Shown: positions 7,991 through 61,650 of the stretch, piece by piece
Position numbering within the stretch: the stretch's first letter is position 1
How the letters are laid out: each line of letters starts with the position of its first letter
Sequence record: EU863409
Source of the DNA: Escherichia phage JS10
Length of the DNA: 64,000 bases
Reading direction: 5' to 3' (one strand)
Translations under genes and position numbers: made by a program
Notes under the pieces: model-generated
The model's input: the letters and a program-made list of their open reading frames with translations, nothing else
Told to the model about the DNA's origin: nothing
Database searches by the model: none

Positions 7991-8025
7991 ACAAAAAAGG
8001 CCCAACCTTTCGGAAGGGCCAATAA
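7990..8025. terminator. Hairpin terminator, stronger for the - strand
   Basis: Imperfect hairpin ggccc...gggcc with a T-run on the - strand side. Confidence 0.4.
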
Positions 8026-8050
8026 CCATAAAATGGCTATACACACTAGA

Positions 8051-8218
8051 CTAAAGTAATAATTGTGTTTCGTTCAGCTGTTCTTCAGTGTTTTCCGTAA
8101 CAGGCATGCTTTGAACGTAATTATAACATGAACCCGGATGAACCGGACCTTTTTCTGTTTCAACAACCAATGCAGCATCGATTGGAGTTTTACAGACAAC
8201 GCAAATCTTATCTGACAT
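8051..8218 (-). CDS. small Cys-containing protein (uvsY.-2 position)
   Basis: About 55 aa ORF MSDKICVVCKTPIDAAL... with GGAGA RBS; below the track size cutoff; coordinates from my reading. Confidence 0.35.
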   Translation of the reverse strand: MSDKICVVCKTPIDAALVVETEKGPVHPGSCYNYVQSMPVTENTEEQLNETQLLL

Positions 8219-8246
8219 GATTGTCTCCTTAGTTTAACTTACATAT

Positions 8247-8345
8247 CTATTTATTACTTGCTAAAGCGGCATTAATGAATTCTTGGAGAAGTTTCATCTT
8301 ATCGGCATCTACTTTAATGGGTTTGGTATTTTTAGTACGTCTCAT
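8247..8345 (-). CDS. very small basic ORF (about 32 aa), start overlapping the uvsY stop
   Basis: ATG overlaps the uvsY TAA (TAATG); may not be translated. Confidence 0.2.
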   Translation of the reverse strand: MRRTKNTKPIKVDADKMKLLQEFINAALASNK

Positions 8346-23974: not shown

Positions 23975-24169
23975 TTATCCTCGCTTCAAACATTTGATTA
24001 CAGACAATTCAGAACCCATGCGCACGTCTTCAGTGCCATCGACCCATAGGACCGTGTAGGCTTCTTTAATAGTAGCATTACCCAATTTAAAAGCAGGTAA
24101 AACCTTTGAAATCATACCAGGAATACCAACGCCTTTTAACTGAACGGTTTGTGATAAGAATAGTTGCAT
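23975..24169 (-). CDS. hypothetical protein
   Basis: 64 aa ORF in the early gene array. Confidence 0.4.
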   Translation of the reverse strand: MQLFLSQTVQLKGVGIPGMISKVLPAFKLGNATIKEAYTVLWVDGTEDVRMGSELSVIKCLKRG

Positions 24170-24456
24170 TAGAACCTCATCTGAAATCCATGTGATTTAA
24201 CATTACCGCCGTAGATGTCAGAAGTATTGACTTCGCGGGCAGCGCTAGGGTCGATGTTAATATCATGGTTGAGCTTAGTGATTGCTAGGGTGTCACGACC
24301 ATTGACTGTACGGAATTCTACTGGACAAACCACATCAGCATAGGCCTTAATGGATTCACGAGTAGGCTGTTTGTCAGCAGGAACATCTTTACCTGCCTTA
24401 GAGAAAACAACTTCACAGAAATTTTTACGAGTATCGAAATAAGTGGTCATAAACAT
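24169..24456 (-). CDS. hypothetical protein
   Basis: 95 aa ORF, first gene behind an early promoter cassette. Confidence 0.5.
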   Translation of the reverse strand: MFMTTYFDTRKNFCEVVFSKAGKDVPADKQPTRESIKAYADVVCPVEFRTVNGRDTLAITKLNHDINIDPSAAREVNTSDIYGGNVKSHGFQMRF

Positions 24457-24469
24457 AATATTTTTTCCT

Positions 24470-24518
24470 CATCAGTTGATAGGTCTATAGTATCATGCCT
24501 ACTGGAGATGTATACCCT
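24470..24518 (-). promoter_or_regulatory. Early promoter cassette (GTATAC-N17-TACTAT plus conserved leader)
   Basis: Conserved motif ttgataggtctatagtatcatg...gtatac read on the - strand; RBS GAGGAAAA follows. Confidence 0.5.
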
Positions 24519-24540
24519 TTTTTAAAGATTTAGAAACAAA

Positions 24541-24563
24541 AATGGGACTCCGAAGAGTCCCAT
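24541..24563 (-). terminator. Rho-independent terminator (- strand)
   Basis: gggactc-cgaa-gagtccc hairpin followed by a T-run on the - strand. Confidence 0.55.
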
Positions 24564-24566
24564 AAC

Positions 24567-24728
24567 TTATGCAATAACTTTACCGAAGCAAGCAGCATCT
24601 GCACGCAATACTGCACGAGCACGAGCTTGAAGCTTATCAACTACCTGATTGATACGCTTGTTAGACGCACGCTTGTAACCAGCGCGTTTAGAGGTTCCGT
24701 CAACTACTTTAACTTCTTTCTTAGCCAT
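24567..24728 (-). CDS. possible small basic protein (about 53 aa)
   Basis: ORF MAKKEVKVVDGTSKRAGYKRASNKR... ending just before the terminator; no strong RBS. Confidence 0.3.
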   Translation of the reverse strand: MAKKEVKVVDGTSKRAGYKRASNKRINQVVDKLQARARAVLRADAACFGKVIA

Positions 24729-25027
24729 TTTTTAAATCTCTTAAATTAGGATGCAGGACTTATTGACATTGCCTGCGCAAGCCCTCAAGGGGAACATAGG
24801 TTTTAGATATTTAACGACAGGATAACCGTAAACCTCGTCATCATAGCTCTTATCTGTTGCACACCGTTAGCTTAAAGGTTCCGGGTTCGATTTCTCGAGG
24901 ATAAGATATATACTGATGGATATATAGGCCTTGAGGCGTACTCCCGATTGGCCATCACCTCGGGGTAGCATGCACTTGCCGCTATAAAATACCATTCAAG
25001 AGGTACACCGTAAAACTGCTGTGGTCT

Positions 25028-25056
25028 TAAAACTATAATGATTCGCAAATCATTAA
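25028..25056 (-). terminator. Hairpin terminator following rIII
   Basis: taatgatt-cgca-aatcatta stem-loop followed by a T-run on the - strand. Confidence 0.45.
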
Positions 25057-25082
25057 TCAGACAGTTCGACGGCTCCTCGATT

Positions 25083-25331
25083 TTACTTCAGGGTAATAAT
25101 AAAATGACGTACTGCTTTACGAGCTGCTGAAGCCAAAGGCTTAGCATATTTCAGTTCATCTTTTGCTTCCAGTTCAGCAGCCAGAGCGGCCTGAGCCGGA
25201 TTAAGATGTTTGAAATAACGCAGGATTTCCAGTGCTTCGGCTTCAACATCAATAGATGCGCCGTAGTTTTCGTGACCGTTGTTCCAAGCGTTGCGTTGCA
25301 GTTCAAGAGCGTGATTCAGATGTTTGTTCAT
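25083..25331 (-). CDS. rIII: rIII lysis-inhibition accessory protein
   Basis: Start taken at internal Met (MNKHLNHALELQRNAWNNGHENYG..., 82 aa); close match to T4 rIII as I recall it. Confidence 0.85.
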   Translation of the reverse strand: MNKHLNHALELQRNAWNNGHENYGASIDVEAEALEILRYFKHLNPAQAALAAELEAKDELKYAKPLASAARKAVRHFIITLK

Positions 25332-25469
25332 TTTAAATTCTCGATTCGAGATAAAGATTGGTGGACACGTTCTTCTGAATTTCACTTCCTTTCGGCAAGT
25401 CTCTCAGTTGTAGTCCACCGCTTAGGATTCTCCGGTTAACTAACTAGTCCGGCAGCCAATCCATATTAT

Positions 25470-25477
25470 TATTTATA
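25470..25477 (-). promoter_or_regulatory. Late-promoter-like TATAAATA (- strand) upstream of rIII
   Basis: Forward tatttata at the 3' end of gene 31. Confidence 0.3.
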
Positions 25478-25801
25478 TCACTTATAAAGACACGGAATAG
25501 CTTTATAGTGACAGGTAACGAATTTCTGTTTAATTTCTTTAGGCTGTTTAATACCTAATGCAACTAAAGGATGTGGCACGTTAGCAATCTTACCAACAGG
25601 AAGTGGAGTCAAATCACCTACTTCACAAAAACCTTCAGGGACATCGGGTCCTACAGAATAAATTTCACAAAGTTCAGGGATTTCACCTTGATGAAGTTTG
25701 CCAATAACGATACCAGATGCAGTAGTTTCTTCATCACCAGCTTGTTTTGGTTCGGAAACGAGAATAACATATTCTCCGACCGCTTTAATAGGAAGTTCCA
25801 T
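25478..25801 (-). CDS. 31: gp31 co-chaperonin (GroES-like)
   Basis: 107 aa; ...[18 protein letters not shown]...[15 protein letters not shown]...[14 protein letters not shown] matches T4 gp31. Confidence 0.9.
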
Positions 25802-26162: not shown

Positions 26163-26396
26163 TTATTCCAGAATAGTTTTAATAGTGGTTGCATTACGCT
26201 CTTTTAGAGCTCTTAATAGGCTATGGCAATTATCAAGAATAGGCACCGTTTTGTATTTCATGTTGGCATAAACCCACTCAGATTTATAGTACGATTTCCA
26301 TCGAGAGAAAAAGTACTTTTTGTATTCTACTGAATAGGCTACTAAGCTTTCACCTTTTGAATTCAGACCTGAAAACTTAACTAGACGAAATTTCAT
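26163..26396 (-). CDS. hypothetical protein (31.2-position)
   Basis: 77 aa ORF. Confidence 0.5.
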   Translation of the reverse strand: MKFRLVKFSGLNSKGESLVAYSVEYKKYFFSRWKSYYKSEWVYANMKYKTVPILDNCHSLLRALKERNATTIKTILE

Positions 26397-26941
26397 TATT
26401 CACCACAATAGTTTTGAATTGATTCCCAGTTCAGAGAACGGAGACCGGTACGGTTATACTGGATAACTTCGATGCCGGATTCACGGAGGATATCATCCCA
26501 CCCTTCAGGATTTCGGTCATAGAGTTCAGCATAAACCAGCGTTTTAATTCCGGACTGCGCAATAGACTTAGCACAATCTGCACATGGGGACAGTGTCACA
26601 TACATCGTAGCACCGTCAATAGAACTTCCTGTACGAGCTGCGAACAGGATAGCATTCAGTTCAGCATGGATTTCATTTTTGGATGACCATGCGGCATGAG
26701 CCATACGATGTTCTTTAAGAAGAATCGATTTATGGGACATTCGTGCCGTGTCATACACAACACGAGTCCAGTCCTGTTCCACTGCATGGTCACAACAGTT
26801 AACACCACCAGACGGAGAACCATTATACCCTGTAGAAATAATGCGACCATTCTTTTCAATAACCGCGCCCACTTTCCATGAACAACATTTTGATTCCTGA
26901 GAAATCAGATAGGCAATCTGAAGATATGTACTTGCTTTCAT
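26396..26941 (-). CDS. cd: dCMP deaminase
   Basis: 181 aa; zinc-binding HAELNAI...PCADCAK cytidine/dCMP deaminase motifs. Confidence 0.85.
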   Translation of the reverse strand: MKASTYLQIAYLISQESKCCSWKVGAVIEKNGRIISTGYNGSPSGGVNCCDHAVEQDWTRVVYDTARMSHKSILLKEHRMAHAAWSSKNEIHAELNAILFAARTGSSIDGATMYVTLSPCADCAKSIAQSGIKTLVYAELYDRNPEGWDDILRESGIEVIQYNRTGLRSLNWESIQNYCGE

Positions 26942-61296: not shown

Positions 61297-61384
61297 GGGC
61301 GCAGTCAGCGCTGATATAAAAATTAAAACTAACGGTAGTAATCACTTTACCATGCAACTTTACTTTATAAATTCGATTACCCAT
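61238..61384 (-). CDS. hypothetical small protein
   Basis: Start taken at internal Met (MGNRIYKVKL...) with GAGGAAAA RBS; track ORF is 61238-61426. Confidence 0.35.
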   Translation of the reverse strand: MGNRIYKVKLHGKVITTVSFNFYISADCARDILIEEGYSEYIQIEEVL

Positions 61385-61394
61385 AATATTTTCC

Positions 61395-61505
61395 TCAGAA
61401 GTTAAAGAATACACGTACATGGTCAATCATAAAAACGATTGGGAAAATGCTCAATACCATTAACAACACAAACATGTTCCAAATTGCTTTAAGTAAGTTT
61501 TTCAT
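61395..61505 (-). CDS. possible small hydrophobic peptide (about 36 aa)
   Basis: MKNLLKAIWNMFVLLMVLSIFPIVFMIDHVRVFFNF, directly behind an early promoter cassette. Confidence 0.3.
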   Translation of the reverse strand: MKNLLKAIWNMFVLLMVLSIFPIVFMIDHVRVFFNF

Positions 61506-61517
61506 AATCATCTCCAT

Positions 61518-61562
61518 TAGTTGATAGGTCTATAATATCATGTCTAATGGAGATGTATACTG
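61518..61562 (-). promoter_or_regulatory. Early promoter cassette (GTATAC-N17-TATTAT)
   Basis: ttgataggtctataatatcatg...gtatac. Confidence 0.5.
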
Positions 61563-61650
61563 ATTTATGCCAATTTCCACAACAATAAACTAAAACATAC
61601 GCAAATCACTGGGATACAGGCTATCCAAATAAGGCACCACATTTTGCTAC

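Follow-up and report, generated by a model that had tools for sequence, protein, structure and literature searches.

Locus and Architecture of the rIII–30.9 Spacer

Escherichia phage JS10 (record EU863409), a T4-like phage of the genus Dhakavirus, contains a 354-nt stretch (positions 24729–25082 of the window, that is, of the whole 64,000-nt stretch of DNA that was analyzed), which the gene order on the minus strand places as the spacer between rIII and a homologue of gene 30.9. This noncoding stretch encodes, on the minus strand, a folded RNA domain of ∼147 nt (24841–24987) that consists of a 135-nt core and a variable closing stem, P0. An earlier note, made from the sequence alone, had singled out the gap as unusual and as lacking any open reading frame (ORF) of 60 codons or more, and had suggested that it may encode a structured RNA or a regulatory leader. 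Indeed, the longest ORFs within it encode 58 aa (from a TTG start) and 42 aa, the gap ranks in the top three of 54 in a crude ORF map of the window, where the median gap is 56 nt, and covariation supports three RNA modules inside it on the gene-sense strand. The structure itself is different from the one then sketched, as it is not tRNA-like and has no conserved long-range stem to 24782. Over positions 24400–25500 the window is 99% identical to Escherichia phages UP19, MN04, and Esco_phi_B-01 and 96% identical to JS98, and the genes surrounding the spacer are arranged as follows:

26396–26941, minus strand: cd (ORF map and JS98 annotation)
25478–25801, minus strand: gene 31 (ORF map and JS98 annotation)
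25083–25331, minus strand: rIII, the upstream gene of the transcription unit (phrog_1457, lysis inhibition accessory protein, E = 4e-43; annotated rIII in JS98)
24567–24728, minus strand: gene 30.9 homologue, encoding a 53-aa basic protein (phrog_1427; JS98 annotation)
24542–24563, minus strand: intrinsic terminator that closes the unit formed by rIII, the RNA modules, and 30.9 (9-bp stem, five G-C pairs, U tract)
24169–24456, minus strand: 30.6 (ORF map and JS98 annotation)

The 53-codon basic ORF and strong terminator that the earlier note had described at the end of the stretch are thus the 30.9 homologue and the terminator at 24542–24563. A conserved terminator is found only after 30.9, at the same place in JD18, Merlin, and Cronus. 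Consensus scans of four lineages (the window, JD18, Merlin, and Cronus) revealed neither a σ70 promoter nor an intrinsic terminator beside the core, the T4 middle and late promoter types not being formally scanned. On the minus strand between 24700 and 25100, no promoter-like site reached the threshold of at least 9 of 12 matches to TTGACA-N16–18-TATAAT; the weak promoter once read from TTTTAC (25015–25010) and TATTTT (24991–24986), which lie 18 nt apart, falls below it.

Predicted Fold of the 135-nt Core

The core model, in which RNA position n corresponds to window position 24982 − n, reads in dot-bracket notation:

((((........(((((((((((([[[[[[))..))))).))).))......)))(((((((]]]]]])))))))(((((((.((((....))))(((((...............))).))......))))))))

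Its elements, all on the minus strand, are:

24847–24981: conserved RNA core, 135 nt, matched by nhmmer and by the covariance model (CM) at 170.8 bits, the sole hit in the window
24982–24987: 5′ strand of P0, UUAUAG; the flanks pair in every lineage
24841–24846: 3′ strand of P0, CUAUGA, which overlaps the first conserved bases of module X (see below)
RNA 1/135: C1–G135, which extends the outer stem P0
RNA 2–4/53–55: P1, a helix of the four-way junction
RNA 5–12/47–52: internal loop, AAGUGCAU / CUCAAG
RNA 13–24/31–46: arm A, with bulges A33A34, A40, and C44
24952–24957 (RNA 25–30): arm A hexaloop UGAUGG, the 5′ strand of kissing helix K, pairing with 24914–24919
RNA 56–62/69–75: hairpin C
24914–24919 (RNA 63–68): hairpin C hexaloop CCAUCA, the 3′ strand of kissing helix K, pairing with 24952–24957
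RNA 76–82/128–134: helix D
RNA 84–87/92–95: hairpin E, with loop GAAA, GUAA, or UAAA
RNA 96–100/116–121: helix G, with U119 bulged
RNA 101–115: loop G
RNA 122–127: joining strand J, GCAACA

In the model, P0, P1 (with C1–G135), C, and D are predicted to meet without an unpaired base and so to form a perfect four-way junction. Helices D, E, and G form a three-way junction, the single-stranded GCAACA and GCUAA of which are invariant. The hexaloops of arm A and hairpin C are joined by the six pairs of kissing helix K. The closing stem P0 is kept with quite different sequences from lineage to lineage (UUAUAG/CUAUGA in the window, and CUUAUAG/CUAUAAG, UUUAUAAG/CUUAUAAA, GUAUAAU/AUUGUAU, CAUAUUA/UAGUAUG, and UAAA/UUUA elsewhere), its mean contiguous run being 5 bp compared with 2.08 when the partners are shuffled (0 of 2,000 shuffles). 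RNAalifold, which is independent of the model, recovers P1, A, C, D, E, and G, and the centroid fold of the window sequence alone recovers the nested helices together with P0.

Covariation Supports the Fold on the Gene-Sense Strand

The pairing of the core was assessed in an alignment (A2) of 23 distinct variants, including loci from IMG/VR and from metagenomes. Across its 44 core pairs, 99.3% of the cells are paired, and two-sided changes are present at 20 pairs (56 cells), values that none of 500 shuffles reached. By comparison, pairing was 93.4% in the shuffled controls and 31–41% when the 3′ partners were slid by one to three columns. An earlier, smaller model of the core gave the same covariation picture. 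Kissing helix K is paired in all 23 variants, and three of the six pairs that make it up show covariation (U-A/C-G; G-C/U-A/A-U; G-C/A-U). Hence, both conservation and covariation were found for the core in related phages, and on this comparative evidence the structural claim, that the core is a conserved structured RNA, is a strong one.

Among the core pairs, ∼45 cells are G·U and none is A·C, with U62·G69 present in 21 of the 23 variants and G23·U32 in 11; the structure therefore exists only on the minus, gene-sense strand. The three sense reading frames are open across the core in zero, zero, and one of the 23 variants, respectively, and the antisense frames in none; moreover, single-base insertions and deletions shift the frame between close relatives. 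Many GenBank records carry a "hypothetical protein" over the core (for example, OX638288.1, PP889492.1, and PQ537369.1). As no reading frame is open across the family, this annotation appears to be a miscall. Invariance is more frequent among unpaired positions (30 of 45) than among paired ones (44 of 90), the pattern expected of an RNA that makes specific contacts by its junctions and loops.

Two further features pointed out in the earlier note can be placed on this fold. The long-range complementarity of 8 nt between 24783–24790 and 24929–24936 does exist, joining core positions 46–53 to a small hairpin at 24782–24792, but it is not conserved in relatives. Because the loop of that hairpin varies freely, and because core variants with CCUUAUGG keep CCCCUUGAGGG downstream and are thus unmatched, the pair is taken to be a coincidence of this genome. 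The T-arm-like GGTTCGATT (24884–24892, plus strand) is the antisense of RNA 90–98, which comprise the end of the E loop, the 3′ strand of E, and the start of helix G.

Distribution and Conservation of the Core

When the spacer was compared by BLAST with 50,697 phage records, T-even phages matched in the flanks, whereas the central block of ∼135 nt is absent from T4, T2, T6, and RB51. The same block is 91–96% identical in Klebsiella phages, the flanks of which cannot be aligned, and 80% identical in Erwinia phage Cronus. Altogether the core matches 406 phage records from many Tevenvirinae genera, at one place per record among the records listed, and the hosts include Klebsiella, Escherichia, Shigella, Enterobacter, Yersinia, Salmonella, Citrobacter, Serratia, Raoultella, Erwinia, and Edwardsiella. 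In all annotated loci that were inspected (JS98, JD18, Cronus, EcS1, KMB17, Merlin, UFV01, and EK29), the core lies between rIII and the 30.9 homologue on the same strand. Comparison of the window with JD18 or Merlin gives 95.6% identity for the core, compared with 74% for rIII, 64–66% for 30.9, and 72% for gene 31. We infer that the core is dispensable, yet conserved well beyond the needs of base pairing.

By a CM built from A2, neither the rest of the window nor the rIII loci without a core contain an additional or diverged copy. No core was found in 5,426 E. coli genomes, and plasmids gave only two 30-nt chance matches. Among genomes representing each GTDB species, a first two-block pattern gave no match and a second gave five, all by chance (CM scores of at most 14 bits). 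These searches show the core, in the collections covered, to be confined to T4-like phages of Enterobacterales. The core also matches PQ898399.1, Enterobacter phage SonariX, at 66699–66784; at 248,734 bp, compared with the usual genome size of ∼170 kb, this record may represent a different genome type or an assembly artifact.

An Exchangeable Site and Neighboring RNA Structures

Close relatives show three states at the site between CUCUUGAAUG and the UAUGAUG of module X. In the first, the core is present and is preceded by UAUUUUAUAG. In the second, a different module of ∼50 nt, module Y (…CUAUCACGCGUCAGAAAAAGGUUAUCUGUCUAAGCCGUGGUUGG), stands before UAUGAUGACG, exactly at the core site, in Dhakavirus- and Tequatrovirus-like loci (L012–L014, L016, L017, L019, L022, and L024 of our set). 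The third state, found in T4, L018, and L021, is empty. The alternation of three states at one site points to exchangeable RNA modules as part of phage accessory content. The motif GGUUAUC is common to modules Y and X.

The remainder of the spacer contains the following structures:

25000–25078, minus strand: module W, a long imperfect hairpin just 3′ of the rIII stop (minimum free energy −25.4 kcal/mol, z = −2.21; RNAalifold, 15 variants)
24796–24845, minus strand: module X, an H-type pseudoknot (S1, 24833–24841 with 24814–24821; S2, 24824–24827 with 24799–24802)
24782–24792, minus strand: local hairpin CCCC-UUGA-GGG, with the CCC/GGG stem in all lineages
24753–24776, minus strand: hairpin GCAGG...CCUGC ahead of the 30.9 ribosome-binding site, read from the sequence

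Module W shows compensatory changes along its length (GCCGU/ACGGU to GCCAU/AUGGU; AACUG/CAGUU to AAUUG/CAAUU; and, at the tip, AAUGAUU/AAUCAUU to AUCGAUU/AAUCGAU). That tip is the hairpin at 25036–25043/25048–25055 that had been called a terminator after rIII: the 8-bp stem and 4-nt loop are present, but the A/U-rich stem, the weak U tract, and the consensus scan do not fit a terminator, and the hairpin is part of the longer conserved stem 25000–25078. A GGAG in the 5′ base of module W is invariant; it lacks the following A-rich sequence of efficient RegB/S1 sites (PMC1702504).

Module X contains 15 pairs, nine of which, including pairs of both stems, show two-sided changes (0 of 500 shuffles), and a U·G pair is invariant in 23 of 23 variants. 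In relatives S2 extends up to 7–8 bp, and the third loop is A-rich. The module is also present in L002 (T4), L003, L004, L005, and L025, including T4-type loci without the core; T4 thus has modules W and X and lacks the core. Relative to the core, module X is downstream in the window, in Cronus, and in T-even phages; JD18-type phages have the opposite order, with module X upstream. According to one review, the pseudoknot of T4 gene 32 may be unique among known viral pseudoknots in serving to autoregulate translation (PMC3014915), so module X is apparently undescribed. No module gave an Rfam match in the window and eight related loci.

The hairpin at 24782–24792, which T4 also has, varies in its loop (UUA, UUGA, UUUGA, UUCGA, UAGA, and UCGA), and in place of the hairpin at 24753–24776 other genera have a longer one, GGGAGC...GCUCCC. 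In Klebsiella and Enterobacter phages (L003, JD18-type; L006; L025), the 30.9 Shine–Dalgarno sequence GGAAG and a UCUCC upstream of it can form a small hairpin after the GGGAGC...GCUCCC stem. Judged by sequence, this hairpin could sequester the 30.9 ribosome-binding site in those phages; it is absent from the window.

With regard to the neighboring genes, the 30.9 protein has an invariant SKRAGYKR-SN motif and no match in Pfam, NCBIfam, or the PDB, phrog_1427 being its sole family, and AlphaFold predicts a single helix with a disordered basic tail (predicted local distance difference test score of 67). Genes 30.7 and 30.8 (∼826 bp) are missing from 24457–24566 of the window; JS98 (L001, 1599–2370), UP19, and other near-identical phages have them between 30.6 and 30.9. 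Two other gaps of 354 nt without an ORF of at least 60 codons, at 7991–8344 and 61297–61650, are the next largest in the crude ORF map, and in these nothing matched Rfam at the gathering score.

The Core Matches No Known RNA Family

A search of the core against Rfam 15 (4,227 families) gave no sequence or structure match, either at the gathering score or at E up to 10. No part of the 64-kb window matched at the gathering score, and at E up to 10 the region 24400–25500 gave two chance-level hits (12 and 18 bits). An Rfam hit to Atu_C8, at 31 bits against a cutoff of 50, falls on the end of T4 30.9 and its terminator and is irrelevant. ARAGORN found no tRNA gene in the window; an identity as tRNA or transfer-messenger RNA was rejected on this result and on the antisense position of the T-arm-like motif. 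Homology to T4 rnaC/rnaD was likewise rejected. A CM built from A2 (R1), run with filters off, scored at best 6.5 bits in the T4 tRNA/rnaC/rnaD region, and this hit was not on the rnaC/rnaD genes (70908–71171). By-eye likenesses to motifs of the thiamine pyrophosphate riboswitch (TPP; CUGAGAAAU), the S-adenosylmethionine riboswitch SAM-I (CUUAUC/GAUAAG), the hammerhead ribozyme (UGAUGA), and the hairpin ribozyme were dismissed, because the bases concerned belong to stems that covary and the corresponding Rfam models gave no match. Full-text literature searches on sequence and topic gave no description of the core. The core is a new RNA family, absent from the RNA databases and the literature searched.

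Proposed Role of the Core

T4 and other phages do without the core, whereas rIII and 30.9 are universal, so the core is unlikely to be a basic expression signal of either gene; a cassette that binds something appears the more likely. The constraint on the core goes beyond base pairing, and the invariant bases are unpaired ones, which makes contact with a specific partner probable. The reading that we favor, tentatively and at slightly less than an even chance, is that the core is an optional RNA cassette whose action depends on binding a single, specific partner, whether a host protein, a phage protein, or a small molecule. In T4, early, middle, and late promoters all serve rIII (PMC9409239). 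As no signals of their own were detected for the modules, these would be transcribed through most of infection in rIII–30.9 RNAs. The core would then be made throughout infection within transcripts that read through rIII, and trimming at P0 may yield a compact, stable RNA. RIII binds the RNA-binding domains of ribosomal protein S1, thereby limiting activation of the RNase RegB (PMC9409239); as the core is cotranscribed with rIII, S1 is one candidate partner, although a speculative one and a lead rather than a result. A bolder proposal, which we regard as doubtful, is that the core represents a new functional RNA class with an activity of its own (a decoy or sponge for a host factor or defense signal, a ribozyme, or a ligand sensor) and that the spacer is a swap site for RNA cassettes. 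If so, the alternatives found there (core, module Y, or empty) would be exchanged much like accessory protein genes.

Several points weigh against the binding cassette or qualify the structure on which it builds. The folding energy of the single sequence is not unusual (z = −1.21), and the case for the core therefore rests on covariation. Apart from one U·G in P1 and a swap of A-U to U-A in G, P1, C1–G135, and four of the five G pairs are without variation; these parts, and with them the perfect four-way junction, are predictions consistent with the data that covariation does not prove. The cross-genus identity of the core could in part come from recent horizontal exchange and not from constraint. 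Searches of the window for antisense targets of loop G and of RNA 111–127 (from the 3′ strand of G to J) found none beyond chance. The mode of action proposed here is deduced from comparative patterns. An element acting in cis on the rIII–30.9 mRNA would be an equally good fit to the fixed position and orientation of the core and to its lack of own promoter and terminator signals.

Such an element is the most probable alternative, and we consider it possible, if on the unlikely side, that the core is a cis-acting regulatory domain in which binding of a metabolite or protein alters the processing, stability, or translation of 30.9 or rIII. The core keeps the same orientation between the same two genes, within a single transcription unit ending after 30.9; a P1-like stem closes the core; its multihelix junction, kissing loop, and invariant junction bases resemble riboswitch aptamers; and its neighbors W and X are likewise mRNA structures. 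However, the core is optional in a setting where both genes are universal, T4 having neither it nor module Y. It is located at least 118 nt from the 30.9 start with other conserved structures between, the order of core and module X is reversed between lineages, and neither a terminator nor a conserved alternative pairing follows the core, points on which a riboswitch expression platform was rejected. There is also no Rfam riboswitch match.

A more remote alternative, to which we assign a small probability, is that the core cuts the rIII–30.9 transcript as a self-cleaving ribozyme of a new class. Small self-cleaving ribozymes are common in phage intergenic regions, and the compact junction-plus-pseudoknot fold with invariant unpaired bases would suit one; the four-way junction, one arm of which has an internal loop, is loosely reminiscent of the hairpin and twister-sister ribozymes. 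Yet no Rfam ribozyme family matches even at E up to 10, ∼147 nt exceeds the size of most self-cleaving classes, and no cleavage-site signature can be named.

Strand-specific covariation, the analysis of reading frames, and the ARAGORN result exclude the other readings. That the spacer holds a DNA-level feature (a recombination site or mobile cassette, a promoter, or a protein-binding site) with an incidental RNA fold is very improbable: sharply bounded presence/absence polymorphism within genera, the three alleles of the site, and an A/T-rich, −10-box-like sequence at the 5′ edge of the core would fit, but compensatory changes preserve pairing on one strand only, with many G·U and no A·C cells, there is one copy per genome in every listed record, and the promoter scan was negative. 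A small protein gene or degenerate tRNA, suggested by the ORFs of 42 and 58 codons that overlap the core, the annotations in several records, and GGTTCGATT on the plus strand, has next to no probability, given that no frame stays open across the 23 variants and indels shift it between close relatives, that ARAGORN finds no tRNA and the T-arm-like motif is antisense to the RNA, and that the T4 tRNA/rnaC/rnaD cluster gives no CM match.

Significance and Comparison with Known Systems

T4-like phages are among the best studied viruses, and the core seems to have been overlooked, probably because T4 itself lacks it. Its location is suggestive, directly after the gene whose product binds S1 and restrains RegB (PMC9409239). 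With a pseudoknotted fold, many compensatory changes, and ∼400 natural variants, the core is a well-defined target. Its recognition also corrects the "hypothetical protein" calls made over it in many GenBank records.

The aptamers of the lysine and purine riboswitches are organized by loop–loop kissing. The core has in common with these a P1-like closing stem, the kissing of adjacent arms, and the placement of its most conserved bases in unpaired junctions and internal loops. Unlike them, it is optional, has no expression platform, and does not directly precede a ribosome-binding site or terminator, and its downstream gene hints at no ligand. EAR of Bacillales and put of phage HK022 are cis-acting processive antitermination RNAs inside operons. 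Like these, the core is a conserved RNA, pseudoknotted in part, that lies between two genes of the same operon and ahead of a terminator; however, it is not homologous to them, it is optional, and nothing indicates read-through of the terminator after 30.9.

In the case of module X, and not the core, the closest parallel is the pseudoknot in the T4 gene 32 mRNA leader, an autoregulatory operator located 67 nt upstream of the gene 32 start (PMC3014915). Module X is also of the H type and also belongs to a T4-type mRNA leader, ∼68 nt upstream of the 30.9 start. Its sequence is unrelated, and hairpins intervene where gene 32 has an A/U-rich unstructured run to the ribosome-binding site.

T4 rnaC and rnaD (species 1 and 2) resemble the core as T-even RNAs of ∼120–140 nt that are parts of longer transcripts. 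In contrast to the core, both are present in T4, where they belong to the tRNA cluster, and rnaC terminates with a T arm and acceptor like those of a tRNA. The core is also similar to the orphan RNA motifs of phage and bacterial intergenic regions (PMC2864571, PMC5737381), with which it shares a complex fold supported by covariation, invariant junction bases, and a phage-encoded origin. It differs from these in being restricted to T4-like phages of Enterobacterales, where it is always situated between rIII and 30.9.

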